From Bacteroidota bacterium (lineage in GTDB: Bacteria > Bacteroidota > Ignavibacteria > Kryptoniales > JAKASW01): DNA of 64,000 bases. The notes under the pieces are model-generated. The model saw nothing but the letters and a program-made list of their open reading frames with translations. It had not been told where the DNA came from and searched no databases. Position numbers and translations under genes: made by a program. Shown here piece after piece: positions 2,297 through 41,346 of the stretch. The DNA lies in the NCBI GenBank assembly GCA_023480735.1, contig JAMCXB010000047.1:30486-94485 (forward strand), given 5' to 3'. How positions within the stretch are numbered: the stretch's first letter is position 1; the number at the start of each line of letters is the position of its first letter.

Positions 2297-2303
2297 GGAT
2301 GTT

Positions 2304-3011: not shown

Positions 3012-3012
3012 A

Positions 3013-4041: not shown

Positions 4042-4173
4042 GTTCTTCGGGTCTTCTTTCTCATGATGGTTTGTTAGGGATTGCACCATTCGATATATTC
4101 GTATCAATTTATCCATGAAGTATACTCCTATGCTTATCTTCCGTCGATCGTGAAGTCTAAAAGACTCATTTAA

Positions 4174-6140: not shown

Positions 6141-7352
6141 ATGCTTTTTTATATTCAAAAAGTGAGAGCGATTCTACGAGGGAGGCTAGTTATTGATGGT
6201 CTCCATGAAGTCAGTGAAAATATGGGAATCGTTGTAGATGGCGGAACAATTTTGCATGTGGGAAAATATGCTGAGATCGCCCGACACGCAGGCAGCCTTC
6301 CCGTCTACAACTTTGACGGTATACTCTGTCCGGGTTTGATTAATGCACACACGCATCTTGAGCTGTCTTTGTTCAGCAAAGAATCCTTCTCTCACAAGGA
6401 TTTCGTCGAGTGGGTGATCCGGCTTGTAGAGTCAAGATCTTCGGCTTCCTCCAGCGAGACTCATCTAGAGTGCTTGAAGGCAAAGAGGGAGGTTGAAAAG
6501 CGCGGTACTTCTTATTTCGTCAACGTGGGAAATGATTACGATATGAATGTGTCACTCGGCAAGAATCAACTGTTTCAATTCGAACAAATAGGAATAAACG
6601 GGTCTTATGCCGACAAAATACTCGGTCATGCCAGCTCGCTTATAGAGGGCCAGTATGGGGTTGACACTTCATTGGCTGTGCACGCTCCATATTCGGTTTC
6701 GACGGAGTTGATGCGAGGGATTAAAGCATTTAACAATAGCCGGGGGACCATCACATCCATTCATCTCGCGGAGACTGCGGACGAGGTCGAATTCACACGT
6801 TCGGGAAAAGGCCGAATGGCCGACCTTCTTAATCATAGTGTCGGAAAATGGAATTTCACCGTTCCAGGCTTGTCGCCTGTACAATATGTCGACTCTTTGG
6901 GTGTGCTGGATGAAAAAGCCTTGTGTGCTCACTGTGTGTTTGTCGATGACGAAGACGTAAGAATTCTGAAAGACCGTCGGAGCACGGTGGCAGTGTGCAT
7001 AAGGAGTAATCTGGAGCTTTCGGGTGAGAAGCCTCCGTTAGAGAAATTTCGGCGGAACGGGATTCGAATACTCATCGGTACAGATAGCAAGGCAAGTTCC
7101 CCCGACATAGACATGTTCTCAGAGATTGCAGCGTTTTACGACGAGTTTCACGATTTGTTTACTCCATCGGAGATAATTTCCCTCGCAACGGCCGACGCGG
7201 CTGATTTTCTTGGAATCGGCGATCATTACGGACGAATCGCTGCCGGCCTGAATAACTCAATTGTATATGTCCCGTTCGATGGAAATACCGAAGAGGCTTC
7301 CGAGTTTCTGGTCTCAGAAGCTTCTGGAAAGACTGAGGCGGTCGAGATTTGA
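6141..7352 (+). CDS. amidohydrolase-family protein (chlorohydrolase/deaminase-like)
   Basis: Metal-binding HxH motif in PGLINAHTHLELS, a later HLAET, and GTDS. Substrate cannot be assigned. Confidence 0.8.
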   Translation: MLFYIQKVRAILRGRLVIDGLHEVSENMGIVVDGGTILHVGKYAEIARHAGSLPVYNFDGILCPGLINAHTHLELSLFSKESFSHKDFVEWVIRLVESRSSASSSETHLECLKAKREVEKRGTSYFVNVGNDYDMNVSLGKNQLFQFEQIGINGSYADKILGHASSLIEGQYGVDTSLAVHAPYSVSTELMRGIKAFNNSRGTITSIHLAETADEVEFTRSGKGRMADLLNHSVGKWNFTVPGLSPVQYVDSLGVLDEKALCAHCVFVDDEDVRILKDRRSTVAVCIRSNLELSGEKPPLEKFRRNGIRILIGTDSKASSPDIDMFSEIAAFYDEFHDLFTPSEIISLATADAADFLGIGDHYGRIAAGLNNSIVYVPFDGNTEEASEFLVSEASGKTEAVEI

Positions 7353-7753
7353 GCGCGCGGTCCATGCTTGCACTGGTTTTTGCGGTTCTCCTCGGAGTAG
7401 TGGCCTACAAAACCGTGTTCGTCCCGGTCAGTGTGGGCATGGAAAGTTATCCCAAGAAGATTTTCATAAACACCGCGACTCCAGTTGATATCAAAGTAGT
7501 CGCTTTGAACAGAATTGGCTTCCGTATTCCCTTCATGCGCCTTCATGGGAAGTTCATTATACCGGAAGGGGCAACGAAGATACAAGTGCTTAAGACGGAA
7601 GACGATGAAATGATCTTCAGGACAAAGAGTACTGCCGGGAAACTGGTGGTCCTTTATTATACGCCCATCATTCCTTTTCCTGTCGAGATTGTCTTGGACA
7701 TAGAAACTTCAGCGCTGGCATACAGTAAACCTTCCTTACTGATTCCCAGTTAA
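7349..7753 (+). CDS. hypothetical membrane-anchored or secreted protein
   Basis: The ORF overlaps the amidohydrolase stop by 4 nt. N-terminal hydrophobic segment MLALVFAVLLGVVAY. No family recognised. Confidence 0.5.
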   Translation: MSARSMLALVFAVLLGVVAYKTVFVPVSVGMESYPKKIFINTATPVDIKVVALNRIGFRIPFMRLHGKFIIPEGATKIQVLKTEDDEMIFRTKSTAGKLVVLYYTPIIPFPVEIVLDIETSALAYSKPSLLIPS

Positions 7754-7761
7754 GTGCATAG

Positions 7762-9212
<1,451 letters not shown>

Positions 9213-9214
9213 AT

Positions 9215-10420
9215 ATGTCTGAGTTTGACAGCATCGATGTTGCGATTGAAGACATTAGACAGGGCCAGATTGTAATAGTCGTAGATGACGAGGAACGGGA
9301 GAACGAGGGAGACTTTGTTCTCGCTGCAGAAAAAGTGACTCCTCAGGCGGTCAACTTTCTCACAAAACACGCGCGTGGAATAATTTGCGTTTCTCTGTTG
9401 CCCGAACGTGCTGAGCAATTGCAGCTCGATATGATGGTCGGTGACAATACCTCACTTCACCAGACCGCTTTCACGGTAAGCGTGGATGCGGTAAGGGGTA
9501 CCACGACCGGCGTATCCGCTTCCGACCGCGCTACGACGATTCTATCGCTCGTGAACCCGGAGACGGTCCCGTCTGACCTTGCAAGGCCTGGACACATCTT
9601 TCCCCTTCGTGCCGTGAAGGAAGGTGTACTGAGGCGGGCGGGACACACCGAAGCAGCCATAGACCTCGCCAGATTGGCTTCGCTGTATCCGGCAGGAGTC
9701 CTGTGTGAGATTATGAACGATGATGGTACAATGGCACGTGTGCCGCAGCTGATTAAGATTGCCCGTGAGTTCGGGCTGCACATCGTCACGATCAGAGACC
9801 TTATTAATTACAGGATGCAACGCGAGCAGATGGTGAAGAAAATCGTCGTCACCAAGCTGCCTACTCAGTACGGCAACTTCGACCTGCATCTCTATCAGAG
9901 CGTAATTGACAAGAAGGAACATCTCGCGCTTGTCAAAGGCACAATATCCGGCGATGACCCCGTCTTGGTACGGGTGCACTCGGAGTGTCTCACCGGCGAC
10001 GTCTTCGGCTCCAAGAGGTGCGACTGTGGTGAGCAGCTGCATTGCGCGATGAAGAAGGTTGAAAAGGAAGGGACAGGAATAGTCCTTTATATGCGCCAGG
10101 AAGGAAGAGGAATCGGTCTCGTAAACAAGATCAAGGCATACAAGCTGCAGGACGATGGGCATGACACGGTCGAGGCAAACGAAAAGCTTGGATTCAAGGC
10201 CGATCTTCGCGATTACGGTATCGGGGCACAGATACTTGTCGATCTTGGCGTCAGGAAAATCCGTCTCATGACGAACAATCCCAAGAAAATAGTGGGCCTC
10301 GAAGGATATGGGCTTGAGATTGTCGAAAGAATCCCGATAGAAGTCGAGCCGAATGAGGAAAATCAGAAGTATCTCGAGACTAAACGGGATAAGCTAGGTC
10401 ATCTCATCCTCGATCTCTGA
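9215..10420 (+). CDS. ribBA: bifunctional 3,4-dihydroxy-2-butanone-4-phosphate synthase / GTP cyclohydrolase II
   Basis: RibB motif [12 protein letters not shown]. RibA zinc site [18 protein letters not shown]. 401 aa. Confidence 0.95.
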
Positions 10421-11571: not shown

Positions 11572-12166
11572 CTTTCCAGATTACTCGTCAGTGATGGAGC
11601 GAATCCGATTTCCCTGGCAGCAACTCTGTTACGTTTGGATTCAAGATTTCCCTTGTTTAATATTTGGAAGAACCTAGGGTGGACGGGCCCCGGAAGGGGT
11701 CCCGACGGGAGTTTGGAAGGTGAAGGACAAACGGTCGATATGACAAAATGTTGTTCGGGAATAAGGGATGCACAAGTGATAACGGATTCACGCTTTGGAC
11801 GTCACAGCGGTGCTCCCCACAAAGTACAACTACCTAAAGAGCGGGCGCAGAAACTGCGGTTCCCAGTGCTATGGCGAGTCATCGGGTCTGATGACTGACG
11901 AACGGGCAGATATTCTGCTGTTGTGCCTGCTCCAAACCAAACGGAGGGTAAAATGAATTGCGTTACAGTTAAGCAAGCAAAGGATATTCATCCTAATTCT
12001 CAGCCTTGCGCCGCTCCAGTCATGCAGTCAGAAGCTCAACGTTTCGGAATCCCCTACAGCAACAACCGTCCAAAAAGGATCGGATAGTACTTCTACGACT
12101 GCGTCGTCAAAGGAAGTCAAGGGCAATCCAAAGTTATCACCAATTAGGACATCTTCCGTCCAGCCA

Positions 12167-13186
12167 TTGGTTCAATACTACAATGCAGGGGCGACTTATA
12201 ACGGGCCTGAACAGTGGCGGGCCGATCATTACTGTCCGCGATATGGGGTCTTGATGCTCTTTGAAAGCAAGGGCATCACCGGGTCATCATCGGGATGGTC
12301 CACTATGCGAAATCAATATGGGTTCAATGGGATCATCGGGTTGACCCCATCTTATATTGATCAGGCCATATCCGTCGGATATAATTTCAAAAATCTGATC
12401 AGCGGGCTTCCGGATTCTTTGAGCGAATTGAGTTCATGGGTTTCGCTTGCGCTGTCGAAGTATGTCACGAATTTTTATTTTGACGAGCCATGCAATAGCA
12501 ATCACAGTTACTCCCTTGCAACGGCTCGCGATACAATCGGGAGTTTAAGCGGGGGGACTGGAAAGCTCTGGGCGGCCGATTATTGCACTACGGCTCAAAT
12601 GCTCGCCAATGCCTGTCCGACTGACTGCCTGATACAACAATATCCCTACATGGACGATCTCGGCTGCGACAAATATGCTTACACCTTAGGCAGTAGCTGT
12701 AGTCAGGTGATTTCTAATTACACAACGTGGAGAAATTCATTCCCGGACAAGTTCGATTTCATTTGGATCGCCGCCGAGGACGGAGAGACTGGCTGTTATC
12801 AGAACGAGTTTGACTGGATGATTCAAAATGGGGGGATCGGTACTGTTGCTCTATACGTCGATGGGAGTTCAAACTGGTCGGATGTTACGGATTTTTGTCA
12901 GCAGGCATATTCACACGGTTATCTTAACCAGGTATACAGACAGTTCCATTCGGTCTATACATGCCGCTACAATAATGTGAGCTTTCCTCCGGCGTGCTGC
13001 GGTGGGAGCGATTACGGAATGTGGGACGCCTCAACTCAGACTTATATTGAATGCAGCAACCCTAATGGATCCGGCTGCGTGCAAGTGTGGTATCTTACGA
13101 GCAACGTTGATGACAACGGATGGTCCAACCCCACTCCGTACGGATCAACTATCACGTACTTCGGAACAACCAGCCCTTGTCCATAA
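12167..13186 (+). CDS. Cys/Trp/Tyr-rich hypothetical protein, probably a lipoprotein whose true 5' end lies upstream
   Basis: The first canonical start is TTG 12167. The same frame is open from 11957 and there encodes RIFILILSLAPLQSC (lipobox-like) plus a Ser/Thr-rich linker. The only nearby ATG (11953) is in another frame. Confidence 0.6.
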   Translation: MVQYYNAGATYNGPEQWRADHYCPRYGVLMLFESKGITGSSSGWSTMRNQYGFNGIIGLTPSYIDQAISVGYNFKNLISGLPDSLSELSSWVSLALSKYVTNFYFDEPCNSNHSYSLATARDTIGSLSGGTGKLWAADYCTTAQMLANACPTDCLIQQYPYMDDLGCDKYAYTLGSSCSQVISNYTTWRNSFPDKFDFIWIAAEDGETGCYQNEFDWMIQNGGIGTVALYVDGSSNWSDVTDFCQQAYSHGYLNQVYRQFHSVYTCRYNNVSFPPACCGGSDYGMWDASTQTYIECSNPNGSGCVQVWYLTSNVDDNGWSNPTPYGSTITYFGTTSPCP

Positions 13187-13195
13187 GTAAGGGGG

Positions 13196-13867
13196 ATGAA
13201 AATGAAAATGACATTTTATTTATTCTTCGCTTTCTTGCTGCTACTATCCGGAGTGGACTGCAAAGCCCAAGGGAGGCGGATGTACTTCGGCGTGGAATAC
13301 GAGCTTAATCCCACGCCAAGCTTTGTTTTTCACGGTGGAGGAAATCCTGTTAGGTGGGATAATGTTGCACTTTACGCAGGGTATTTCACCGACCGGTATA
13401 CGTCCGTCGAGGCATTTACGACGCTTGGAGAATTCAGTGATCGGAATTACCTGAGCAAAGAGGGCCTCTATTTCCCTGCCGAATATGTCATAACAAAGAA
13501 CGTGGACAGATTCTTATTTGCTACGGCAGGTATTCGGTTGAACCTTGGTTCCAGCTATTCTGCAAGGGGTGTAAGATGGTATTTCTTGTTGGGTACCGAG
13601 GGGATCTTCTTTGGAGCACCGTATCGCGAGAGGAGTATAACTTACTATGATGGCATTCTCGACAGTGTTCTTACGAGGAAATGGGGCTTCCCGATTTTCA
13701 GGTATCAAGGTTGGGGAATAACTCTGCTTGGGTTCAGACTGATTGTGCCGACCCGCTACATAGATCTATCCTGGACCTCACAATTCACGATTCCTGTGCT
13801 TAAATGGGGATGGAACGACATGCCGGATGCCACACTTTTGTCGAGTACGGTAGGAGTCCAGTTTTAG
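13196..13867 (+). CDS. putative outer-membrane beta-barrel protein
   Basis: Signal peptide MKMKMTFYLFFAFLLLLSGVDCKAQ. Alternating aromatic/hydrophobic pattern. C-terminal ...TVGVQF ends in Phe. Confidence 0.6.
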   Translation: MKMKMTFYLFFAFLLLLSGVDCKAQGRRMYFGVEYELNPTPSFVFHGGGNPVRWDNVALYAGYFTDRYTSVEAFTTLGEFSDRNYLSKEGLYFPAEYVITKNVDRFLFATAGIRLNLGSSYSARGVRWYFLLGTEGIFFGAPYRERSITYYDGILDSVLTRKWGFPIFRYQGWGITLLGFRLIVPTRYIDLSWTSQFTIPVLKWGWNDMPDATLLSSTVGVQF

Positions 13868-14886
13868 GGAATCAGCGGCGCCCGATCCGCAATCGAGGCA
13901 GCCAGATCTTCCGGAGGGGGCATTCCTTCCAGGAACCTGTTGAATGCCGCTTCTATTTCTGGAAACGTCTCCAGCCTTACTAACGTCGATCTCAGCGTGG
14001 AGCCGTTCCGGATTCCGTGGACATATCCGTGATAATATTTCCTGAATTCCGTCAGTCCGCGGTGTTCGCCTTTTAACCCTATCTCCATCTTCAGGTGGCG
14101 GAGACAGGTGTCAGCCCGCTCGCGGAAGTCGGCAGGGGGAGGAACGGCGCCGTGTTTAATCAGATGTTTTATATCCCGAAAGATCCATGGATTACTGACG
14201 GCTCCCCTGGCAACCATGACTCCGTCGCACTTTGTTGATTCGAACATATCGAGCGCGTCCTGTGCCGACCGTATGTCGCCGTTGCCTATGATGGGAAGCT
14301 CAGCCATTTCCTTGATGCGCCGGATCCAGTCCCAGTCGGCATCGCCGTCGTGATGCTGCGCCCTCGTGCGTGCATGAATTGTCAGTGCCGATAATCCTTC
14401 GCCTGCGCAAATCTTTGCGACCTCGGGTATCGTAATGGAGTTCGAGTCCCAGCCGAGGCGCGTCTTTAAAGTGACCGGAATTGAAACCGCGCTCTTCACG
14501 GCGTGAATTATCGACTTCATCTGGCCGAGGTCCTTCAGAAGTCCGGCTCCCGCGCCTCGCTGAGCGACTTTGGGAACCCAGCAGCCCGCGTTGATGTCGA
14601 TGAAATCCGGTCCTGCATCTTCTGCCATCCTTGCGGCTTCGGCCATCACGTTCGGATCGCCGCCGAATATCTGGATGCCGACAGGGCGTTCCTTTTCGCT
14701 GGTAATGAGTTTCTGCGTGCTTTTTCTTGCTGAGCGGATCAAACCCTCGGAACTGATGAACTCGGTGTAGACTATGTCCGCCCCGAATTCCTTGCAGATA
14801 AGTCGGAAGCCGAGGTCCGTCACATCCTCCATCGGGGCAAGTGCAACGGGGTTTTCTAATTCGTATTTTCCCAGGTTTATCTTCAT
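13864..14886 (-). CDS. dus: tRNA-dihydrouridine synthase
   Basis: Dus motifs LAPMEDVTDLGFR, DINAGCW (catalytic Cys) and TIHARTR. 340 aa. Confidence 0.92.
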   Translation of the reverse strand: MKINLGKYELENPVALAPMEDVTDLGFRLICKEFGADIVYTEFISSEGLIRSARKSTQKLITSEKERPVGIQIFGGDPNVMAEAARMAEDAGPDFIDINAGCWVPKVAQRGAGAGLLKDLGQMKSIIHAVKSAVSIPVTLKTRLGWDSNSITIPEVAKICAGEGLSALTIHARTRAQHHDGDADWDWIRRIKEMAELPIIGNGDIRSAQDALDMFESTKCDGVMVARGAVSNPWIFRDIKHLIKHGAVPPPADFRERADTCLRHLKMEIGLKGEHRGLTEFRKYYHGYVHGIRNGSTLRSTLVRLETFPEIEAAFNRFLEGMPPPEDLAASIADRAPLIP

Positions 14887-15081
14887 ATTCTGTTCCGCCT
14901 CACAATTTAGGCATAGCGCGCGGGATAGAGCAAGGCGGAAATTGAGAGGTAATTTTGGGGACTACATCCCTCAAAGCTGAGATTTCAAGCGGCTGAGATT
15001 CCAACAAAGCCGCCAACTCAATCGTCCGGTATTCCGGCGAAAGGGGTTCTACTCGGTTTTGTTCTGATGCGCCGAGATGCG

Positions 15082-15111
15082 CTACGGCACAATCTTGTTC
15101 AGCGGATACTC
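15082..15111 (-). repeat. orphan copy of the last 10 codons of hisG (att-like direct repeat, left junction)
   Basis: Reads GAG TAT CCG CTG AAC AAG ATT GTG CCG TAG on the minus strand. 27/30 identical to 24722-24751, with a 22-nt perfect core at 15084-15105. Confidence 0.8.
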
Positions 15112-15116
15112 AAGTT

Positions 15117-15139
15117 GTGCAGGAGCTCTGCTCCTGCAC
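15117..15139. other. perfect hairpin beside the left island junction
   Basis: gtgcaggagc-tct-gctcctgcac: 10-bp perfect stem, 3-nt loop, no U-tract. Confidence 0.6.
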
Positions 15140-15272
15140 CCTGGTCGGAACGCCCCCACCTGAAAATCCTTAGCTTCGTTGGGAGTGGCCTTTTTGGCGC
15201 TTGAATTGTCGGATGATTGAGTCAGCGGAACCGCTCATTTGCCCGCGGCTTTCGCTGAGATATGTACGGCCA

Positions 15273-15306
15273 GTATCAAAACCGAACAGCAGATGTATCA
15301 AAACCG
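15273..15306 (+). promoter_or_regulatory. tandem 12-nt direct repeat upstream of a LuxR-type gene (candidate binding site)
   Basis: gtatcaaaaccg occurs at 15273-15284 and 15295-15306, 22 nt start to start, roughly 190 nt upstream of ATG 15493. Confidence 0.3.
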
Positions 15307-15492
15307 CACACGATATTGGCTCTGAATGCTGGTACTCATTAATCTGGCAGGAATTCAGCGATCTCCAGGCATCACGGCCCGGCAGGGTGTTTGTATGCAA
15401 CTAATCAGAAAGTCGGCCGTTCTCCATCTCATATGGCGGACAATCGGATGAACGGTCAGGTTATGCGTAAGAACATTCGGGAGGATAAGACA

Positions 15493-15738
15493 ATGGGACT
15501 GTCTCAGAATCCGGTGTCAATCGGGGCGGGACTAACCGGCAACGAATCCAAAGTTGCTCGGCTCCTTGCAGAAGGGTTGCGGCGCGAAGAGATCGCGCAA
15601 CAATTGAACGTGAGTATTAGCACAGTCAAATTCCATCTTGAGAATGTGTACAGGAAGCTCGGAGTGCACAACCAGGTAGGAGCGGTGGCTGAGTTCTTGG
15701 GAGACCCGCGTGTAAAGGATGATGGAGATTTGGGATAG
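15493..15738 (+). CDS. GerE/LuxR-type HTH regulator, DNA-binding domain only
   Basis: LTGNESKVARLLAEGLRREEIAQQLNVSISTVKFHLENVYRKLGV. GGGAGG SD before ATG 15493. The track ORF starts at 15391. Confidence 0.8.
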   Translation: MGLSQNPVSIGAGLTGNESKVARLLAEGLRREEIAQQLNVSISTVKFHLENVYRKLGVHNQVGAVAEFLGDPRVKDDGDLG

Positions 15739-15750
15739 TGGAGTACGACG

Positions 15751-15820
15751 AAAACTCACCCGTTTGGGTAGTTGCGCGATCAGGCTGTAGATAGTAAGTT
15801 ATGCCGGTCAAGCCTCGCGG
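15751..15820 (+). repeat. leader block, paralogous to 17866-17935
   Basis: About 48/70 ungapped identities by hand. The core tttgggtRgttgcgcga matches 16/17, and taagttatg is shared. Confidence 0.55.
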
Positions 15821-17009
15821 CAGAGGCCGCGATAATTGGCATCCCCACGCAATGATGGGGATGCCGGGCGAGGACGGAAAAGTGAGCTATTCTGATGAGA
15901 GGCCGGAGTATATTGATGCGGGAGAGCAATCGTGGGGCAATGAAATTCCCGGTAGTAGAATTAGGCTGGAGCGAAAACTGAGGAGATGCATTAAATACAA
16001 GGAATTCTTGTTTGTACTGCTTATTGGAGTGATCTTATTCATCGGTTGCAATAATAATCCAATAAGCTCCGCCAGTTCTCTTTGGACCCAATGTCAGGGG
16101 CTGCCAACCGGTTTGCCTATCACAGGTTTTGCTGCAAGCGGAAGTAATCTGGTTGCGGGGAGTTACAACGCCGTCTTCTCACAAGCTTACATCTTCATTT
16201 CCTTTGACGAAGGTTCAACCTGGCGGTTGGATACCACGTTTCATGCAAAGAATCACTATCCAGGCATTCCCCTTTGGGTCGGCACTCAAGTTACGTTCCT
16301 TTCCGACGGCGCGTACCTCTTTGCCGGGATAGCGGGCGACAGTGGAAACACATACGTCTCCACAGACGGCGGTGCAAGCTGGGTCGAAAGGGATACTAGC
16401 TTTGTTGAAAGTATACTTTCTTTTGCTGCTGAAGGAGGAACCATTTTTGCGGGAACCGGTCGAGGGGTATTCCGATCTACTGACTATGGCATAAGCTGGA
16501 GCGCTGCCAACGCTGGCTTGTATGACTCGCATACAGAGATAGGCCTTGCCGTTAGTGGGATCACGTCTGTTGGCAAAGACATTTTTGCGTGTACCGAGGG
16601 AAATGGAATCTATCGTTCGACGAACGGCGGGGCAAGTTGGGTAAAGGTTAATACCACGCAATTCGATTTTCACAGCCTCGCGCCGATTGGTGCAGAAATC
16701 TTTGCCGGATTTCCCGGAGGTTACTCCAACGGCGGCGTCCTGGGGTCCACGGATAACGGAGCAAATTGGAGGCCTGTCGACGCTGGATTGACGAACCCTT
16801 CAGTCAATGTCCTATGTGCGAACGGTTCTAATCTTTTTGCCGGTACAAACGCAGGGGTATTCCTTTCTTCCAACCTGGGGGAATCCTGGGTAGGTATTTC
16901 AGCGGGGACGAAGATCGATTCATTGGCGGCCATTGCGCTCTTTGCTGGCGGCTCATTCCTTTTTGTAGGAACAGATGAGAGTGGAGCTTGGAGACGTCCG
17001 CTACGCTAA
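15801..17009 (+). CDS. BNR/Asp-box repeat protein, probable lipoprotein
   Basis: Repeated SxDxGxxW boxes (STDGGASW, STDYGISW, STNGGASW, STDNGANW, SSNLGESW). A lipobox-like VILFIGC lies about 80 codons into the ORF, so the true start is uncertain. Confidence 0.75.
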   Translation: MPVKPRGRGRDNWHPHAMMGMPGEDGKVSYSDERPEYIDAGEQSWGNEIPGSRIRLERKLRRCIKYKEFLFVLLIGVILFIGCNNNPISSASSLWTQCQGLPTGLPITGFAASGSNLVAGSYNAVFSQAYIFISFDEGSTWRLDTTFHAKNHYPGIPLWVGTQVTFLSDGAYLFAGIAGDSGNTYVSTDGGASWVERDTSFVESILSFAAEGGTIFAGTGRGVFRSTDYGISWSAANAGLYDSHTEIGLAVSGITSVGKDIFACTEGNGIYRSTNGGASWVKVNTTQFDFHSLAPIGAEIFAGFPGGYSNGGVLGSTDNGANWRPVDAGLTNPSVNVLCANGSNLFAGTNAGVFLSSNLGESWVGISAGTKIDSLAAIALFAGGSFLFVGTDESGAWRRPLR

Positions 17010-17243
17010 AATAAACTCACTGAAAGTCAAAATGAGGATATCTGAAATGAAAAAATAAGGAGGAAGGGATGAGAAAATTCATTTAGCCACAGGCGGCGTA
17101 GCAGCGCCGCCTATAGCAGAAGCGGCAAAATAATCGGCTCAGTATTGGTAATCCACCAGCGGTGGGGTACGCGTGCCTTTTTATTTGCCAGTGATAATTA
17201 CGCAACTATTTTCAGAATTTCAACACTTTGAAGGGAAATAACA

Positions 17244-17835
17244 ATGGGAAAGATAGGAGTAAAAGTAATGCCTCACTGAAAGGGTTATTTCTCTCGCAAA
17301 GGCGCCAAGAACGCAAAGAAATGTTGACGAGCGGTTCGCTTTGCGAGCGGCTTGGCGAGAAACCATAAGTGTGGGGTTACGAGTAAAATACTGGCTTTCG
17401 CTAGCAGCTTTTTTGCTGCTACAGCTTAGCAGCGCTATGATTGCGCAAGGACAACAAGTACTACATGGCACAGTTCCAGCGAGCATCACCAGATTCGGCT
17501 TAAAGCCGGTCTCACGCCTGGATAGTACGAAGCAATTGAATCTCGCAATGTGCCTGCCTGTACGAAACCAGAGTGCATTGAAGAATCTTCTAGGAGAGAT
17601 ATATGATCCGGCCAGCACGGATTATCATCATTATCTAACAGTGGAACAGTTTACCTCACAATTTGGCGCGACGGAATCAGATTACCAGTCGGTGGTTGCC
17701 TTCGCGAAGGCAAATGGATTCACTGTGACTGATACGTCTCCCAATCGCATGATTCTGGATGTGAGCGGAACTGTAGCGAGTATTGAAAAAGCTCTGCACG
17801 TGACGAGTTCTTACGAGACTCCCATCTCACGGATA
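17244..17835 (+). pseudogene. S53 (sedolisin/kumamolisin) peptidase remnant: pro-domain only, 5' end split by a MITE
   Basis: Matches the pro-kumamolisin activation-domain pattern (LGEIYDPASTDYHHYLTVEQFTSQFG...GTVASIEKALHV). The catalytic domain is absent. The 3' breakpoint is approximate. Confidence 0.7.
17265..17380 (+). mobile_element. 116-bp MITE-like element, copy A
   Basis: Differs from copy C at 1 of 116 positions. Imperfect TIR (gtaatgcctcac / gtgtggggttac). 8-bp TSD GAGTAAAA at 17257-17264 and 17381-17388. Confidence 0.8.
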
Positions 17836-17865
17836 ATGCGGATTTGGACTAATTGTGTACGGATA

Positions 17866-17935
17866 AAAAACCGCCCATTTGGGTGGTTGCGCGACCGGAG
17901 GGGACTTCGTAAGTTATGTTTGTCGTGGTTCGCGC
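17866..17935 (+). repeat. leader block, paralogous to 15751-15820
   Basis: See 15751-15820. It lies at the point where S53 homology is lost, upstream of the 18169 gene. Confidence 0.55.
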
Positions 17936-18082
17936 TTAATGGTTCCTCAAGATTGAAATTAGCGGAAATTCAAGAGGAGCGCTTAGTGGCAATGAGAAAT
18001 ACCAAGGTAATCAGTTAAGCAACGGTTCACTGTCACGGCGAGTTCGCAGCATACAACTCAGGGTCGCGTGCCATGCAGTGTT

Positions 18083-18101
18083 GTCGCGTTATTAACGCGA
18101 C
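18083..18101. promoter_or_regulatory. 19-bp perfect inverted repeat (candidate operator)
   Basis: gtcgcgtta-t-taacgcgac, with 9-bp arms, 68 nt upstream of ATG 18169. Confidence 0.35.
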
Positions 18102-18168
18102 GTGATCTTTGTCTGGCTGTAACCGTGTTATGAATGACCACTATCAGCCTAGATACGAAGGAAGGTGT

Positions 18169-19560
18169 ATGAATTGTGGGCCAGTGTTGACAATTAGATT
18201 CCTTTTCTTGGTGTTCGCTTTAATCTTTTCTTATGTGCCAAAGGTTATTCCGCAGGATTTCCAGGTAAGCACCAGTGGAGCTGCAACCCTTTCAGTACAA
18301 GTTGCAAGCGATTCGTCCGGCCGTTTTGTCGTAGTCTGGGATGACGGCCGAAACATCAGGATACCTTATGGCGGGACAGGTAGTGAAGGTGATATCTATG
18401 GTCAAAGATATGACAACAAAGGGGCTCCGGTCGGCAACAATTTTAGAATATCTGATGACAGTTCTGAATGTGACAAATCATTTGCAGCACAATTCTTACC
18501 CCGAATCTCCATGAACAAGAAAGGGGAGTTTGTCGTCGTTTGGATGGACAGTAGGCCAAAGGCTACGCCGGATAATTCAACTGCCCCCCTTGAATTCAAC
18601 GTGTATGCACAACGGTTCGATTCAAGAGGTGAGCCTCTGGGGAGCAATTTCCTGGTGGACAGTCCAGCGATTGGGGGCCAATTGAATCCAGATGTCGTCA
18701 TGAGGAATGACGGCAGTTTTGTTGTTATATGGGTTAATAGTCTTGAAAGTGAAGGTGGGGTTAACAAGGTCTTCAGAGTGTATCTTCAGTCTTTTGATTC
18801 CAAGGGGAGGAAAGTGGGTTTGATTCAGAAGCTGAACCTCTACGCGCAAGAGCCCAGAATAGCGCTTTTCGATGATGGCGATTTTGTCATCGTGGCAGAC
18901 ACACTTGCTCAGGTATTCTCTTTTCCTTCAGATGAGGTGGGAGTTCCTTTCAGGATTTCGAAGGGTTTCACAAGGGTGGTCAAAACCAGCGATGAAAATT
19001 GCACAGATATATATGGGCAGAGATTTAACCTAGATCTGTCCAGGATACGGGGAGACCTAAAGATAAGTCATGAATCAGATAAGTCTGAACAACTTGTTCC
19101 TGCCTGCGCCATGGAAAACAATACCATACAAATTGCTTGGCTTGACGCAAGGGGTATGAGGTACTTCACGAACGTGTACCCTCCACAATTGGAGATCGAT
19201 GTATGGGCTACAATTCAAGATTTTAATAATCCAACTGAGGGGCTTCCGACTCACTGTTCGCAGCCGCCATCGCATATTCCATCCTCTTTCAAGTTCTTTC
19301 AAAGTTATCCTAACCCTACCAATGGTATGGCCGCTTTTGCGTACGATTTACCTGAGGATGGGACCGTGAGACTCACTTTATACAATATCCTAGGGGAGGA
19401 GGTGACGTTACTGGGGGATGAATTTCAAAAAGCAGGGCACTACACCAGAGATTTCATGATTGACAATCTATCCAGCGGCATATATCTCGCAAGATTGTCG
19501 GTTAAGACCATTTCAGGAAGTACTCACACAAGCACAATCAAACTCGTCTTACTTAAGTAA
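18169..19560 (+). CDS. secreted repeat protein with T9SS C-terminal sorting domain
   Basis: Signal peptide MNCGPVLTIRFLFLVFALIFS. Internal repeats of the form GxFVVVWxD...DIYGQRFD..GxPxGxxF. C-terminal YPNPTNG...VRLTLYNILGEEV...GIYLARL matches the Por secretion tail. Confidence 0.8.
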   Translation: MNCGPVLTIRFLFLVFALIFSYVPKVIPQDFQVSTSGAATLSVQVASDSSGRFVVVWDDGRNIRIPYGGTGSEGDIYGQRYDNKGAPVGNNFRISDDSSECDKSFAAQFLPRISMNKKGEFVVVWMDSRPKATPDNSTAPLEFNVYAQRFDSRGEPLGSNFLVDSPAIGGQLNPDVVMRNDGSFVVIWVNSLESEGGVNKVFRVYLQSFDSKGRKVGLIQKLNLYAQEPRIALFDDGDFVIVADTLAQVFSFPSDEVGVPFRISKGFTRVVKTSDENCTDIYGQRFNLDLSRIRGDLKISHESDKSEQLVPACAMENNTIQIAWLDARGMRYFTNVYPPQLEIDVWATIQDFNNPTEGLPTHCSQPPSHIPSSFKFFQSYPNPTNGMAAFAYDLPEDGTVRLTLYNILGEEVTLLGDEFQKAGHYTRDFMIDNLSSGIYLARLSVKTISGSTHTSTIKLVLLK

Positions 19561-19607
19561 GCGTGTGCATTTTGTCGCTCATTCACTGTGAAAAATACGG
19601 AGGAAAA

Positions 19608-19754
19608 ATGAAGACTCTAAAGAGAACCCCTTTTGCTATGTTCCTGATACTTTCAGCAGTCTTTCTTTCCAAAGGAATTTCTTACGGACAATTATCAGGC
19701 GGGAACGGAGCAAAATATACTACTAGGTTTTCGTCAAGCTTATTCGACTTATAA
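19608..19754 (+). CDS. small secreted peptide (48 aa), hypothetical
   Basis: GGAGGA SD 5 nt before the ATG. MKTLKR, a hydrophobic core and then ...QLSGGNGAKYTTRFSSSLFDL. Ends 27 nt before the next start. Confidence 0.45.
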   Translation: MKTLKRTPFAMFLILSAVFLSKGISYGQLSGGNGAKYTTRFSSSLFDL

Positions 19755-19781
19755 TTGGACACTGACGCACCGGAGGTTGAA

Positions 19782-19994
19782 ATGAATGTTGCAGCAGAGC
19801 AACTCAGCAAGCGGGAACAGGAGGTTTTGCGGCTGATTCTGGAGGGATTTGAAAACAAGGCGATTGCAAAGAAGCTTTTCATTAGTGTAAAAACGGTTGA
19901 ATTCCATAAAGAGAATCTTAAACAGAAATTGCAACTGAAAACCAATAGAGAATTGTATGAGTTGAACAATGGTCATATAATATTTGAGGACTGA
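19782..19994 (+). CDS. GerE/LuxR-type HTH regulator, DNA-binding domain only
   Basis: [50 protein letters not shown] before ATG 19782. Confidence 0.8.
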
Positions 19995-20075
19995 ACAGGT
20001 GAGCATTCCATCCAAAGCGATGTCCTCAACGCTTAGCTTTGAACGCGCTATCGAAGGTAAAATAAGGACTTGCCA

Positions 20076-21149
20076 ATGAGAACGCCGAAGATCCTGATTC
20101 TTTTCCTCCTTTCCGGTGCGCCGTTATGCGGCCAGGAACTACCAACCGAAGGCTTATTCGAGTTCAACTCGATCTTTCAGCAGAAGAACATCAGAGTGTC
20201 GGACAGAATCAAAGAGGACTTGAATCTGCAGGGTTCATTTATTCAACAGACCTACTACAATGCAAACAAAGACACGCGGATAGATTCCATTCAACCAATA
20301 AGGCGGGTCTCTACAATTCAATACTTCTCAAATGGTGATCAAAACGTGTTGCAGTTGCTGGACGATGGATCTCACTTTGACGATGGCTCAAGCGACGCAA
20401 TCTACGGAAATGTTTCAATTGGTGAATTCGACCGGTTTCGTACTGATGAATCCACCATCGATGTTCAGTTAGACACGATGGGAATTAATTATTTTATGAT
20501 TTACCCTCGGGTTACTTACTTGCCGGAGCCGCCCACTATAATAATCCCTCAAAATAGTTCCACGGTATCATCGACAATGCCTCAAGTTGCCTGGAGAATA
20601 GACCCGAGAGCAGATGGAGCGGGCGTAATCCTTCTTGCAGGTGCTCCGGTCCTGGGAGAGAAACTGAAAGGCGTAATTTGGCAGGAATCGTTCGCGCAGA
20701 ATGGGAATAGCCTCTTTACGGAAAAGTTGCCGTTCAAGTTGGAAAACAAGAAAGAGTATACGTTGATAATTTGGTCATACACAAACACTAAAGTGGTTGA
20801 TGGCGTCTTGGATCGAGCTGCATATTCGATGGAGTGGAGCAGGTTTCGCGTAGATACCTCACTGCAGAATGGCGATTTGGTTCTCTTGCAAAATTTCCCC
20901 AACCCCTTTAGTTCTGTGACGTTCATTAGTTATGTTTTGCCTAAGGATGGAGACGTTTCGATAAAGATATTTGATGTTTTGGGGAATCAAGTAGCTACAC
21001 TGGTACACGAAAAAGAATCGCAGGGCGAGCACTATGCTGTATGGTGCGGACAGAATGCTCTTGGATGTAACGTCGGCTCGGGTGTGTACCTCTACAATCT
21101 TATTTTCGACCATCACTCAAGAACCGGGAAATTACTACTGCTCAGATAG
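20076..21149 (+). CDS. secreted hypothetical protein with T9SS C-terminal sorting domain
   Basis: Signal peptide MRTPKILILFLLSGAPLCGQ. C-terminal NFPNPFSSVTFISYVLPKDGDVSIKIFDVLGNQVATL...GVYLYNL. Confidence 0.8.
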   Translation: MRTPKILILFLLSGAPLCGQELPTEGLFEFNSIFQQKNIRVSDRIKEDLNLQGSFIQQTYYNANKDTRIDSIQPIRRVSTIQYFSNGDQNVLQLLDDGSHFDDGSSDAIYGNVSIGEFDRFRTDESTIDVQLDTMGINYFMIYPRVTYLPEPPTIIIPQNSSTVSSTMPQVAWRIDPRADGAGVILLAGAPVLGEKLKGVIWQESFAQNGNSLFTEKLPFKLENKKEYTLIIWSYTNTKVVDGVLDRAAYSMEWSRFRVDTSLQNGDLVLLQNFPNPFSSVTFISYVLPKDGDVSIKIFDVLGNQVATLVHEKESQGEHYAVWCGQNALGCNVGSGVYLYNLIFDHHSRTGKLLLLR

Positions 21150-21302
21150 ATAAACAGGAGTTTTCCCCCGTTGTTCTCCTGTCTGCCCAAGGATACCTTT
21201 CATATGCGAAGTGGAGAACCGTGACGGATCGAATCCGGAGCGGGTGCGGCCTGTTTCCGTGGGTTCTCAGGATTGGTAAACCAAAAAAGAACGGAGGTTA
21301 AT

Positions 21303-21797
21303 ATGGGACGAGCTAATTCAATGATTCGCTTTATAGTTGTCCTTGCCGGGATGCTTGCGGTTTCCGCATTGTCGTCATACGCGCAAGAAAGAACCTTGGA
21401 TGATTTAGTAAGAGACTCTCAGGTGATTGTTATTGGTAATGTTAAGAATGTTCAAAGCAAATGGGACAATCAAAAGAGAAACATCTGGACTTACGTCACA
21501 ATTAGCAGCCAAAGCTATCTGAAAGGCGACATTACACAGGGCGAATTGGTGGTTAGAATCCTTGGCGGCGCGGCGAACGATACAAGCCAGTACGTCTCTG
21601 GCAGTCCAAGGTTCGACGTCGGTGAGCATGTCTTGACTTTTCTGGGGAAGGATGTTCAAGATTTCTACTACGTAAACGGTTGGGAAGATGGCAAGTACAC
21701 GTACAGGGATGGTGCTTGGATTGGAAAAAATTCTGAATTCCCCGGGCAACTCGTCACACAAATAAAGTCTATAGTAAAACTTCAATCAAAACAATGA
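21303..21797 (+). CDS. secreted hypothetical protein
   Basis: GGAGG SD. Signal peptide MIRFIVVLAGMLAVSALSSYAQ. No family recognised. Lies immediately upstream of the metalloprotease gene. Confidence 0.6.
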   Translation: MGRANSMIRFIVVLAGMLAVSALSSYAQERTLDDLVRDSQVIVIGNVKNVQSKWDNQKRNIWTYVTISSQSYLKGDITQGELVVRILGGAANDTSQYVSGSPRFDVGEHVLTFLGKDVQDFYYVNGWEDGKYTYRDGAWIGKNSEFPGQLVTQIKSIVKLQSKQ

Positions 21798-21825
21798 ACC
21801 CTCTTAAACAATGAAGGAGTTTTCC

Positions 21826-23976
21826 ATGGCTACGATGAAGAAGTTCGTGCTTTGTGTTATGTTCATCTGGCTCTTGTTTCCCGCTACATCTCTTTACGCC
21901 TACAAGTATGTCGGATATAGATACACAAAGGGCAATTTTCCCGCTTTCTATGTCAATCAGGCGGGTACCCCCGATTGCTCTGGCGAATTCACTGCTATTC
22001 AAAATGCTCTACAGACTTGGAATAATGTAAACACAACCTATGTTGCTTTTCAGTATGGGGGTACAACCACGACAAATACGATGGGACTGGACGGTACAAA
22101 TCTTATGATGTGGGTAGAGAGCGGCTGGCGAACTATATTTCCAGGCAGTAATGCGGTAGCGGTAAATTCCACGTGGTATTCCGGTGGTGTTGCCTACGAA
22201 TCAGATATTCTCTTTAATGGTGAAGACTACACCTGGTCCGATAACGGAGCGGCTGGCAAATATGATGTCAAGGATGTTGCCACCCATGAAATAGGTCACT
22301 CAGTTGGTCTTGACGATCTCTACGACGATACGGACGCCGATAAGACTATGTACGTTTATATTGGGACTGGCGAGACGAAGAAATCAACCCTAGATCCGGA
22401 CGATGAAGACGGTGCTAGGTACGTAAATTTCGAGGCCCAGACCTCAGGTACACTTTCGGAGGACCAGGTCTGGTTGGTATCGCTAGACGGCACCTCCATC
22501 ACGGTCCCCGGGAATTTGACCATACCTTCGGGTCGAACCTTAGACATAGAATCGGGGCTTGCTGTCACTTTCAGCGGCTACTATAAGCTCCGTGTCGAGG
22601 GGGTACTTATAGCCAGTGGTTCTCCGAGTAGTCCGGTCACTTTTCAGGGCAACGGCTCCTCCGGCTCGTGGTTCGGCATCGAATTCTACAATATCTCAAG
22701 TGGTTCGAGCCTCCGCTATTGCACAATAAAGGATGCCAGCTACGGATTGAACCTGATCTCGAGCTCTCTTCCCGCTAATCCCCTCATCATCAGGAACAAT
22801 AACCGCGGAGTCAACTGTACCAACTACAGCGATCCGAGTTTTATGTCGACCGTATTCGACTATAACAACTGGGACGTCTACGGTGATGGTACCTCGACAC
22901 CGCTGCTTGGAACATCGATAGGCCCGGGGTATAACAGTTTCCGCGACCCCGGATACTACCAGATATATTCAACCTATTCCGGTACCATCAGCGCCGAGGG
23001 GAACTGGTGGGGAAGCTCTCCCGCCTATCCCATTGTTACTTCGAATGTGGATTATTCCAACTGGCTTTCCGTTGATCCGAATCCATCCATGAAACAAACA
23101 GGCGGTAAATCCGCCGTTGTCGTCCAGTCCGTATCGCCTTCTTCACCGGGGTTGCAGAACTCTCGGCCAGGCGTCACAAGCTCCGACTCTGGCACAACGC
23201 AACTGGATGCAGCGTATCGTTTGTATCTCGACGGAGATTATGAAAATGCACTCCGGGCTTTTGAAACCGTGACGACAAACTATCCGGATGACTTTGCAGC
23301 CTGCCGCGCCCTGGTTTTTGCCGGGCGGTGCCTCGATAAACTTGTCCGGTCTTCGGATGTTCTCACCGAACTGAACGATGTCTCTGCTGCACAAGCAGGC
23401 ACCAGGGTAAACACATTCGCCGAGGCAAGGCGCACGTATCAATATCTGAAGGAGGGGAAGTACCAGGAAGCGCTTGCGCAAGCCGTGCAGATTGCCGGTT
23501 CGAGCAGCGACACGGCTCTTATGAAGTTCGCGCTTTATGATGCCGGGAGCATCGATTGGTATGACCTTGGTAACAAGGGAGATGGCGAGAAATACTATCG
23601 CCAGTTGATCTCCCGTTTCCCTGGCGATCCGCTCAGCGCTTCTGCACTTGTAGCCATGGGGGAAACCACCTCGCCTTCTGCTCCTCAGCAGCAAGCCAGC
23701 GCTGTAACAGAAGAGAACCAAACAGTACTTGGGAATTATCCCAATCCGTTCAATCCGGCGACTGTGATCTCATACGGTCTTAATAAAGGAGGTCATGTGA
23801 CACTGAGAATCTACGATGTACTTGGAAAGGTTGTCGCAACACTTGTCGATGGTAATGAGAATGCGGGCCAACACAGCGTGCAGTTCAATGGCCAGAACCT
23901 TGCCAGCGGGATTTATCTCTATCGCTTAACTGCACTTGGAGTCGATCAGGTGAAGAAGATGATCCTCATGAAGTGA
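21826..23976 (+). CDS. metzincin-like zinc protease fused to a beta-helix region, a TPR-like region and a T9SS C-terminal domain
   Basis: HEIGHSVGLDD (HExxHxxGxxD) with a downstream KTMY Met-turn candidate. NWWGS motif at the end of parallel-beta-helix-like repeats. C-terminal NYPNPFNPATVISY...RIYDVLGKVVATL...GIYLYRL. Confidence 0.8.
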   Translation: MATMKKFVLCVMFIWLLFPATSLYAYKYVGYRYTKGNFPAFYVNQAGTPDCSGEFTAIQNALQTWNNVNTTYVAFQYGGTTTTNTMGLDGTNLMMWVESGWRTIFPGSNAVAVNSTWYSGGVAYESDILFNGEDYTWSDNGAAGKYDVKDVATHEIGHSVGLDDLYDDTDADKTMYVYIGTGETKKSTLDPDDEDGARYVNFEAQTSGTLSEDQVWLVSLDGTSITVPGNLTIPSGRTLDIESGLAVTFSGYYKLRVEGVLIASGSPSSPVTFQGNGSSGSWFGIEFYNISSGSSLRYCTIKDASYGLNLISSSLPANPLIIRNNNRGVNCTNYSDPSFMSTVFDYNNWDVYGDGTSTPLLGTSIGPGYNSFRDPGYYQIYSTYSGTISAEGNWWGSSPAYPIVTSNVDYSNWLSVDPNPSMKQTGGKSAVVVQSVSPSSPGLQNSRPGVTSSDSGTTQLDAAYRLYLDGDYENALRAFETVTTNYPDDFAACRALVFAGRCLDKLVRSSDVLTELNDVSAAQAGTRVNTFAEARRTYQYLKEGKYQEALAQAVQIAGSSSDTALMKFALYDAGSIDWYDLGNKGDGEKYYRQLISRFPGDPLSASALVAMGETTSPSAPQQQASAVTEENQTVLGNYPNPFNPATVISYGLNKGGHVTLRIYDVLGKVVATLVDGNENAGQHSVQFNGQNLASGIYLYRLTALGVDQVKKMILMK

Positions 23977-24012
23977 TTCCATAACGTAACTTTCATCGAG
24001 AAGGAACTATTT

Positions 24013-24041
24013 GAGGCCCGATTTCTCATAAATCGGGCCTC
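24013..24041 (+). terminator. stem-loop after the metalloprotease gene
   Basis: 12-bp perfect stem gaggcccgattt / aaatcgggcctc with loop ctcat. The U-tract is weak. The stem sequence is shared with 62123-62153. Confidence 0.55.
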
Positions 24042-24138
24042 TCGTTAGCCTATTTCCCCTCGTGTTTTTCCGCACACACAGGATCACCCCCAAGACGTGA
24101 TGAAGACGAAGACAGCGTTCCATTCGGCGCTTCAAAAA

Positions 24139-24588
24139 TCATGTGGATGACTCGATAAGGTCAGATATCTTTTTCAAGGTCCCTGCAGAATGTTTCCCGG
24201 TTCCCGCCTCCAGCCGACGAAGTGTCGCTTCGTCCATTCCTAGTTGGATCGCCAGTTGCTTTCGCGTCATCCCGTGGAGAAGCCTGGACCGAGTGATTTT
24301 CTGGTTCAAGGTGCTTGAGGGGAAAAGATTCCCGGGAATGTATCCCAGGAACTCGATTATCTTCTGGATCTGCCTTATGAGCGGCTCATGATCTCCGGCT
24401 TCCCATCCTACAACGGACATGACATCCACCTGCAGCTGGGCAGCGACCTCCCGCCGGAAGAGTCCGAGATCAAGCCGCCTTTTCCGTATGTGGTCACCAA
24501 AAGTCATAAGTGTCCTCGGATAAGCTTTAGGAAGCGGCTTTTTAGCCTTAATTTCGAGGTGGCAGAATGGCAACGCGGGGATGTCCAT
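24139..24588 (-). CDS. XRE-family transcriptional regulator with two HTH repeats
   Basis: FGDHIRKRRLDLGLFRREVAAQLQVDVMSVVGWE plus a second repeat LLHGMTRKQLAIQLGMDEATLRRLE. The start is ambiguous (24615, 24588 or 24507). Confidence 0.75.
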   Translation of the reverse strand: MDIPALPFCHLEIKAKKPLPKAYPRTLMTFGDHIRKRRLDLGLFRREVAAQLQVDVMSVVGWEAGDHEPLIRQIQKIIEFLGYIPGNLFPSSTLNQKITRSRLLHGMTRKQLAIQLGMDEATLRRLEAGTGKHSAGTLKKISDLIESST

Positions 24589-24721
24589 TCGCTGTGATAG
24601 ACAAATCAAGAGCACTATCTAAGACATGCCGCCCCTACGCTTAGACACTTACCTTGTCTCATGATAGTTCGGGCAACTCTCCGTTCTATTCTCCCAGGAT
24701 TCCGCAATTCCAGGATTCCCC

Positions 24722-24751
24722 TCACGGCACAATCTTGTTCAGCGGGTACTC
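24722..24751 (-). repeat. hisG 3' terminal 30 nt (att-like direct repeat, right junction)
   Basis: GAG TAC CCG CTG AAC AAG ATT GTG CCG TGA. This is the partner of 15082-15111. Confidence 0.8.
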
Positions 24752-25603
24752 GATGATTCCTTCAGCCCCGTTGCGTTTCAATTCCGGGACGATGATCCTT
24801 ACAGTGCGCTCGTCGATTATCGTCTCGATGGCGACCCACTCGTTGTCGTAAAGCGGGGAAACAGTCGGCTTTCGAAGTGCCGGGATTATGCCGATTACTT
24901 TCGGGAGATCCGACTTCCTGATATTCATTTTCAGCCCGACCTTTCCTTCGGCCGCGATCGCTCCCCTCAGCAGTAATGCAATAGTCTCGATTTTCTCACG
25001 CTTCCACTGGTCCTTATAAGCCTCGTTGTTTGCGATAAATCTCGTGGAGGATTGCAGGACGGTATCGATGACGCGGAGGTGGTTCGCGCGTAATGAAGTT
25101 CCGGTTTCTGTCACTTCGACGATGGCATCGGCAAGCTCCGGGACTTTTACCTCGGTTGCACCCCACGAAAATTCCACAGAAGCTTCGACTCCATTGCGTT
25201 GGAGGTACTGCTTCGTGATGTTTACGACTTCCGTGGATATCCGCTTCCCATGCAGGTCCTTCACCGATTTAAACTGCGAGTCTTCCTGAACCGCAAGAAC
25301 CCATCTCACAGGCCGCATGCTTTGTTTTGCATAAACAAGCTCTGCGACTTCTGTAACATCACTGTTGGTCTCGATTATCCAGTCCTTACCGGTCAACCCG
25401 GCGTCGAACGTACCCAGCTCGACATATCTCGCCATTTCCTGGGCACGCACAAGCATGATTTTAAGCTCGTCGTCCTCGACGGTGGGGAAGTAGCTCCTCG
25501 ATGATACCGAAATATTGTAACCGGCTTTCTGAAATAGTGAAAATGTTGATTCCTGGAGACTCCCCTTCGGCAGACCCAGTTTTAACACTTTATCTTTTGA
25601 CAT
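24722..25603 (-). CDS. hisG: ATP phosphoribosyltransferase, long form
   Basis: [13 protein letters not shown]-terminus, the GLTGKDW region, and a C-terminal regulatory domain. 293 aa. Confidence 0.93.
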
Positions 25604-41289: not shown

Positions 41290-41346
41290 CTTCGTCACGG
41301 CTTTGCACATTGCTTAAAAACGGAGGAATAGATATATTTTTTTAGA

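Follow-up and report, generated by a model that had tools for sequence, protein, structure and literature searches.

How does a block of genes come to lie between two housekeeping genes with a second copy of one gene's end at its far side and no recombinase gene inside it? This question is raised by a 64,000-nt stretch (the window) of contig JAMCXB010000047.1 from a Bacteroidota bacterium of the Kryptoniales, in which a 9.6-kb island separates hisG (ATP phosphoribosyltransferase) from dus (tRNA dihydrouridine synthase). A first-pass annotation had read the locus as site-specific integration into the 3' end of hisG, with the element supplying a replacement for the gene end that it displaced. 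We find that the island is bracketed by a duplicated hisG end and is an insertion specific to this lineage. The explanation that we favor, at a probability of roughly 45%, is that a site-specific recombinase, no longer present, integrated a circular element, of which a remnant resembling a cis-mobilizable element (CIME) persists.

The duplication is the starting point. On the minus strand, hisG (24722..25603) is an intact gene of the long form, encoding 293 amino acids with HisG and HisG_C domains. Its last nine codons and TGA stop (24722..24751, minus strand) read tcacggcacaatcttgttcagcgggtactc, and the same stretch recurs in the same orientation as an orphan copy at 15082..15111 (minus strand), 195 nt upstream of dus, where it reads ctacggcacaatcttgttcagcggatactc. 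The in-gene copy corresponds to an attL-like junction and the orphan to an attR-like one. Re-alignment reproduced the repeat that had been described: 27/30 positions are identical, the copies agree without a mismatch over a 22-nt core that begins at 15084 and 24724, both copies read E-Y-P-L-N-K-I-V-P-stop on the minus strand, and similarity breaks off abruptly at either side. The three differences, a synonymous TAT/TAC change and a TAG/TGA stop swap, are all silent. The trace of HisG protein near the orphan amounts to about 10 codons only, a 17-aa extension in the tblastn search being noise. The match is far beyond chance: with up to three mismatches allowed, the core has two sites in the window, versus 0 in 100 shuffles, and the whole window holds only three exact direct repeats of at least 16 nt. 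We also searched the 10 kb downstream of hisG at 83 other loci for copies of the gene's final 60 nt, and the longest one measured 16 nt.

We could not assign the original copy from the codons of related genomes, whose hisG genes stop in TGA or TAA, use both Tyr codons, and differ at several silent positions in the last ten codons. Among metagenome contigs, the exact 22-mer occurs only in three unrelated hisG genes (L081-L083, 58% amino acid identity). Two of these (L081 and L083) match the orphan at 30/30 positions, yet this identity and their unrelated flanks led us to reject them as a donor. Such codon coincidences are expected, because thousands of hisG genes end in PLNKIVP.

A HisG protein scan, with one genome taken per species, yielded four relatives for comparison (L001-L004; HisG 84-89% identical): one Candidatus Kryptoniota and three "uncultured Bacteroidetes" metagenome-assembled genomes (MAGs) of the same clade. 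All four share the gene order mreB-purH-purN-ybbR-hisG-dus, with greA next and, in three of the genomes, also cyaB. In each, dus follows directly, starting 18-150 nt past the hisG stop, and none of the island genes lies between hisG and dus. By this comparison, the 9,610-nt segment at 15112..24721 is a lineage-specific insertion between hisG and dus (13864..14886, minus strand), and the empty site that had been suggested as a check does exist, with the two repeats bracketing the inserted DNA exactly. The orphan lies 195 nt upstream of dus and therefore stands in place of the original hisG end, followed by the retained ancestral hisG-dus spacer (14887..15081); hisG itself now finishes in imported sequence. 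The idea of an imported replacement 3' end is thus borne out. The nearest relative's hisG is 70-81% identical to that of the window at the DNA level, versus 90% between the two repeat copies, which argues that the event was recent and that the second copy came from a very close source.

Composition also sets the island apart, as had been anticipated. Its tetranucleotide distance from the rest of the window is 0.0137, compared with a mean of 0.0079 (SD 0.0007, maximum 0.0095) for the other 9.6-kb windows (n = 71). GC content is 48.1% in the island and 49.7% in the rest of the window, and GC at third codon positions is mostly 0.46-0.55 for island genes versus a typical value of about 0.57. We treat these figures as supportive evidence only, as the amino acid make-up of secreted proteins may contribute to them in part. 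We also considered transfer of hisG itself and rejected it, in a test of low power: HisG identity is in line with that of neighboring genes, and sliding DNA identity to L001-L004 is flat at 68-81%, with no mosaic signal, among relatives too distant for a powerful mosaic test.

The hisG-dus-cyaB stretch is a variable hotspot. A second lineage-specific insertion lies nearby, between cyaB and dus (11572-13863), with two genes that have no family match (12167-13186 and 13196-13867). These genes are absent from L001-L003, and L004 has a type IX secretion system (T9SS) gene in their place. We found no bracketing repeats around this insertion.

Annotation with Pfam and NCBIfam recovered the gene content that had been listed for the island: two GerE regulators, an XRE regulator, a BNR protein, a broken S53 peptidase gene, and four secreted proteins, three of them with T9SS tails. 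All genes except the last are on the plus strand. The first module is headed by a GerE/LuxR-type regulator consisting of a helix-turn-helix (HTH) domain only (15391..15738), and the sequence at 15270-15311 upstream of it is conserved upstream of a GerE gene in L093, one of the loci with related modules in other genomes. Next come a BNR/sortilin-type repeat protein with a lipobox-like N terminus (15801..17009; 66% identical to the BNR protein that precedes an S53 gene in L092), the truncated S53 peptidase gene, which retains only the pro-kumamolisin activation domain (17341..18018; the L092 homologue runs to 984 amino acids), and a secreted protein with a T9SS C-terminal sorting domain (Por_Secre_tail; 18109..19560). 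The second module is headed by another GerE/LuxR-type HTH-only regulator (19755..19994), followed by a secreted protein with the same type of sorting domain (20070..21149), a protein with a signal-peptide-like N terminus and no family match (21273..21797), and an M10 metalloprotease with TPR repeats and a Por_Secre_tail T9SS tail (21811..23976). The C-terminal 491 residues of the metalloprotease are 76-79% identical to P0122 and P0123, which lie at other chromosomal sites, and 78% identical to a gene in L094. Convergent with the protease gene is a tandem-HTH XRE regulator (24139..24615, minus strand, likely start 24588), whose homologues, 57-70% identical, flank equivalent modules in relatives. 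The two GerE regulators each stand at the head of a run of secreted-protein genes in the same orientation, and the XRE gene stands at the far end, as in homologous modules. Judging from these families, the island's most likely contribution is a regulated capacity for extracellular proteolysis or glycan binding, with the proteins exported by the T9SS. We note that about 75 nt past the stop codons of T9SS-tailed genes are conserved between paralogues and genomes (23977-24050 and 62087-62159 in the window, 12956-13029 in L092); this stretch may be a shared terminator or regulatory element.

Where else do such genes occur? Homologues of the XRE regulator (57-70% identity) are found in Kryptoniota genomes, always beside BNR and T9SS genes. 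The compact unit in L093, with GerE, BNR, an S8/T9SS protease, and a convergent XRE, has the architecture of the island. The closest relative of the island's right end is in L094, on another contig of the same genome, where an XRE gene (70% identical) is convergent with an M10/T9SS gene (78%). L089 carries a GerE gene, two small genes, and an M10-TPR-T9SS gene between cation-efflux and glycosyltransferase genes, and L092 has three BNR genes and an S53-TPR-T9SS gene amid other housekeeping genes. The 984-residue protein of L092 (9630-12955) matches the S53 fragment of the window with its N terminus and the window M10 protein (22500-23976) with its C-terminal 491 residues. It thus matches two island genes, and the island is therefore a mosaic of at least two modules plus the XRE gene. 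The C-terminal TPR/T9SS block of the L092 S53 gene is joined to an M10 domain in L089, so this block has been swapped between protease heads. DNA similarity to modules at other sites stops at the XRE start and in the region upstream of GerE. No integrative and conjugative element (ICE) or integrative and mobilizable element (IME) genes were found beside the homologous modules elsewhere.

One further repeat ties the island to its flanks. A 116-nt repeat resembling a miniature inverted-repeat transposable element (MITE) lies at 17265..17380 (plus strand), beside the broken S53 gene, with the target duplication GAGTAAAA at 17257-17264 and 17381-17388. Core-genome spacers in the window hold further copies at 62186-62301 (plus strand) and 41173-41292 (minus strand), and a partial copy lies at 60597-60652. 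The copies share 97.5-100% identity and have separate target duplications of 8-9 bp (GAGTAAAA; GTCCGCT; GTGACGAAG), and the termini are imperfect 12-nt inverted repeats, GTAATGCCTCAC...GTGTGGGGTTAC. The element folds stably (z about -3); it had no Rfam match and was not found in the loci of relatives that we examined. Its presence implies a recently active transposase somewhere in the genome. Because the same element occurs in the island and in core spacers, the island and its flanks belong to one genome.

Observed at this locus are a duplicated gene end around inserted DNA that lacks a recombinase, an empty site in the relatives, and the kind of cargo that is carried; from these we infer a circular intermediate, an enzyme, and a crossover position. 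On the reading that we favor, a circular DNA carrying the last 30 nt or so of hisG would have recombined reciprocally with the chromosomal hisG end in a Campbell-type integration, with the crossover falling inside the 22-nt identical core. The catalyst would most likely have been a site-specific recombinase of the tyrosine type, not encoded by the island and either lost or acting in trans. After such an event, hisG would end in imported sequence with a TGA stop, and the original TAG end, along with the old hisG-dus spacer, would be pushed 9.6 kb away. What remained would be a non-autonomous, CIME-like island of two GerE-headed sets of secreted (T9SS) proteins and proteases plus the XRE regulator. 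Tyrosine integrases as a rule leave just such a footprint, in which the 3' end of a conserved gene is duplicated as a direct repeat of 22-30 nt, with frame and stop restored. Differences that are exclusively silent are expected here as well, because both copies would have evolved as coding sequence before coming together. The proposal of site-specific integration made at first reading therefore stands in part: the bracketing repeat, the empty site, and the restored hisG speak for it, while neither an attP element nor a second occupied site was seen.

A number of observations weigh against this reading. We scanned all stop-to-stop segments of at least 40 amino acids in six frames between 15040 and 24790 with Pfam, at E values up to 1, and found no match to Phage_integrase, Resolvase, Recombinase, rve, or DDE families either there or among the called genes. 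This agrees with the earlier statement that no recombinase is left, as no remnant of a tyrosine or serine recombinase or of a transposase appeared; the noncoding gaps are too short to hide a recombinase gene. Nor did the six frames of the island contain an excisionase, transfer, or replication gene or a remnant of one. With junction spacers of only 133 nt and 280 nt, an integrase gene would have had to be lost without leaving a scar. Searching metagenome and viral contigs for the 22-mer and inspecting the 83 other hisG loci revealed neither an attP-type junction nor a further hisG end that is occupied; the exact 22-mer had no match in viral contigs, and a duplicate of the hisG end was seen at 0 of the 83 loci. 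Homologous modules in L089, L092, L093, L085, and L095 have no bracketing repeats around them, and the stretches at 15112-15270 and 24589-24721 are unique to the window, with no conservation in homologous modules elsewhere. By their sequence relationships, the cargo genes are lineage-native modules of a chromosomal type, not phage- or plasmid-like. Lastly, the two copies cease to be similar precisely at the stop codon, a limit that an att core does not require.

Other searches of the island returned little. Its DNA had no blastn similarity to phage and plasmid records, Rfam had no match in the window, and there are no terminal inverted repeats at the island ends. PADLOC reported generic HTH matches only, and the matches of the XRE protein to RstR (45.9 bits, cutoff 80) and VC1465 (19.2, cutoff 70) are sub-threshold and likewise generic.

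The junctions fit integration by a recombinase and an import anchored by homology equally well, and the latter is the main rival, which we hold to be somewhat less probable. It would start from a close relative with modules downstream of hisG and involve no dedicated recombinase, proceeding by one of two routes. In one, homologous recombination in or upstream of hisG would be coupled to an illegitimate join lying 30 nt ahead of the stop codon of the resident gene, a process called homology-facilitated illegitimate recombination (HFIR). In the other, a circle would be integrated through the short stretch of hisG homology in a RecA-dependent manner; both routes would orphan the resident 3' end. 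Such an import would account for an island without any mobile-element gene that is made of lineage-native modules, and similarity that ends at the stop codon with silent differences only is the pattern of two orthologous alleles. Against the RecA route, a homology of 22-30 nt is about as short as RecA-dependent exchange can use. In Rhs and type VI secretion system (T6SS) loci, HFIR-type processes have orphaned 3' gene ends as their recognized footprint (PMC5361080), and a relative offers a second recombinase-less case, the AbiEi/AbiEii pair in L094 with a duplication of about 300 nt on either side. HFIR is, however, orders of magnitude rarer than homologous recombination (PMC5361080). The donor is a further difficulty: one with modules beside hisG is required and none turned up among the 83 hisG loci or in protein-context look-ups, and if dus lay beyond the modules in that donor too, an ordinary double crossover between homologous flanks would be expected, which leaves no duplication. 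A mosaic signal along hisG was likewise lacking, in a comparison for which the relatives are too distant to give power.

The remaining explanations fare worse. Direct repeats that flank the insertion exactly, in a genome where MITE copies with 8-9-bp target duplications attest to active transposition, bring to mind a target-site duplication made by transposition or staggered-break repair and then altered by three mutations. We consider this very unlikely, because 30 nt is far above known transposon target duplications, terminal inverted repeats and a transposase are absent, and three differences that are all silent, including a two-step TAG/TGA change, have a probability of roughly 0.06 by our own simple estimate, had they arisen after the duplication while one copy was free of constraint. 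Similarly poor are the odds of an ancestral island that the relatives lost, for instance through recombination between the repeats. The five genomes (the window and L001-L004) are about equally distant from one another, so parsimony alone would allow a single deletion along the lineage from which the four relatives descend; however, a non-functional 30-nt orphan could not have stayed at 27/30 while functional hisG fell to 70-81% DNA identity, and the deviant composition and the occurrence of the modules at other loci in other genomes also speak against it. The least probable of all is an assembly artefact or chance match, in which a foreign island or a free circle was threaded into the contig through the 22-mer. 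The source is a MAG, and an exact 22-nt repeat could make a junction in a small-k assembly graph, but the island's MITE copy is 97.5-100% identical to the two copies in core spacers, with target duplications of its own, and the best relatives of the island proteins are in Kryptoniota genomes. Chance is excluded by the shuffles and the 83 hisG loci, and a threaded circle would still imply an element carrying the hisG core.

Two sequences just inside the junctions had been put forward as possible recombinase or regulator sites, and both are present. A perfect hairpin with a 10-bp stem and a 3-nt loop lies at 15117..15139, separated from the orphan copy by 5 nt of island sequence, and is the only one of its kind in the window. 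We rejected it as a terminator, as no T-run follows it and a terminator scan does not call it. At the other end, directly past the hisG stop and within the 133 nt that separate hisG from the XRE gene, CCAGGATTCC occurs twice in tandem (24694-24703 and 24710-24719; overall 24694..24719); it is not a dispersed motif, showing no enrichment in the window. The elements are thus real; both lie in junction stretches that homologous modules do not conserve, and the suggested role would be conjectural. We also note a short tandem direct repeat just past the stop of each hisG-end copy, GATGCGC twice (15067-15083) after the orphan and GGAATCCTGG twice after the in-gene copy, which may be a coincidence.

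The XRE family of the island led to a conserved divergent gene pair in relatives, consisting of a tandem-HTH XRE gene of this family and a short Mg_chelatase_C open reading frame (ORF) of 137-167 amino acids that corresponds to only the C-terminal 135 residues or so of ComM/YifB (ComM-C). The pair is found in L084/L096 (three copies), L093 (16067-16814), L094 (9228-9899), L095 (9574-10504), and L097 (9507-10444). We considered whether the ComM fragments (139-167 amino acids) are att remnants of tandem integrations and rejected this, as L095 and L097 each carry a single pair and have no comM in the vicinity. Relatives that are likewise short-only number in the thousands and are 70-96% identical, versus 52-61% for the nearest full-length ComM. 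Based on the single pairs and this identity gap, the ComM-C ORF is a gene family of its own. The XRE gene of the window has no ComM-C partner, and the hisG end stands in the partner's place.

Duplications near ComM-C ORFs were seen at two loci. In L094, the AbiEi/AbiEii pair is bracketed by a direct duplication of about 300 nt (about 7246-7539 and 9102-9413, 85-93% identical), whose unit consists of the 3' part of the ComM-C ORF and about 150 nt downstream, with no recombinase nearby. In L084, from a complete long-read genome, an array of T9SS cargo modules contains a 3.1-kb segmental duplication (2030-5164 and 13566-16703; 97.7% identical) that starts exactly at the stop codon of a ComM-C ORF.

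A broader conjecture, which we regard as improbable although not negligibly so, is that T9SS cargo modules of the Kryptoniota/Ignavibacteria type move between chromosomal sites as recombinase-less cassettes, entering gene 3' ends and leaving orphaned ends behind. A typical module comprises GerE, BNR, a secreted protease, and a tandem-HTH XRE regulator, often with a ComM-C-only ORF, and the 30 nt of hisG and the roughly 300 nt of L094 would be two footprints of one process, either trans-acting or driven by homology. If a reading without a recombinase holds, such cargo would spread by host recombination and not by classical mobile elements, which would bear on the accessory DNA that mobile-element detectors miss in poorly studied phyla. 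Apart from this conjecture, the locus is a clean and datable case of an uncultured member of the Kryptoniota gaining sets of secreted degradative enzymes, with the insertion point resolved to the base and an empty site for comparison. It adds hisG to the gene ends able to carry an island, and flags the conserved ComM-C-only/XRE pair.

How does the island compare with known systems? Several classes can be set aside. Transposons and insertion sequences do not fit, given the lack of a transposase and of inverted repeats at the ends and a duplication of 30 nt versus the usual 2-14 bp. Nor do integrative mobile elements exploiting Xer, as the repeat is the coding end of hisG and not a dif site, or integrons, whose defining features are absent. 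Islands and ICEs inserted by tyrosine integrases at the 3' ends of tRNA or protein genes share the junction geometry, the 22-30-nt repeat, the restored target, the empty site, and the deviant composition; unlike them, the island has no integrase, excision, or transfer functions. To our knowledge, hisG is not among the recorded integration targets, and we know of no related ICE or IME at this site.

Two further systems come closer. CIMEs are elements that keep attL and attR after the loss of integration and transfer genes (PMC5704250). As in those described at streptococcal ICE and IME sites (PMC5704250), the end of a conserved gene forms part of the attL/attR-like repeats around the island, the target gene is intact, and integration and transfer genes are absent. 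It differs in its host, an uncultured member of the Kryptoniota, and in its cargo of chromosomal modules from the host lineage. Whereas a CIME derives from an ICE or IME, here we found no ICE or IME remnant or pseudogene in the island, no phage or plasmid similarity, and homologous modules without ICE or IME genes. The orphaned 3' regions attributed to HFIR in Rhs and contact-dependent inhibition (CDI) loci and in the T6SS effector-immunity arrays of Vibrio cholerae (PMC5361080) show the same succession of a complete gene, imported DNA, and a displaced remnant of the gene's own 3' end, again with no recombinase and with imported genes of a native functional class. Those loci have a long constant 5' anchor and serial arrays, in contrast to the housekeeping anchor, 30-nt remnant, and single event seen here. 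Because an integrase and remnants of a parent ICE or IME were searched for and are absent, we file the island firmly under neither class. It is nonetheless real, well delimited, and of a familiar kind, and it works like both the CIME-like decayed islands and the orphaned gene ends left by HFIR.

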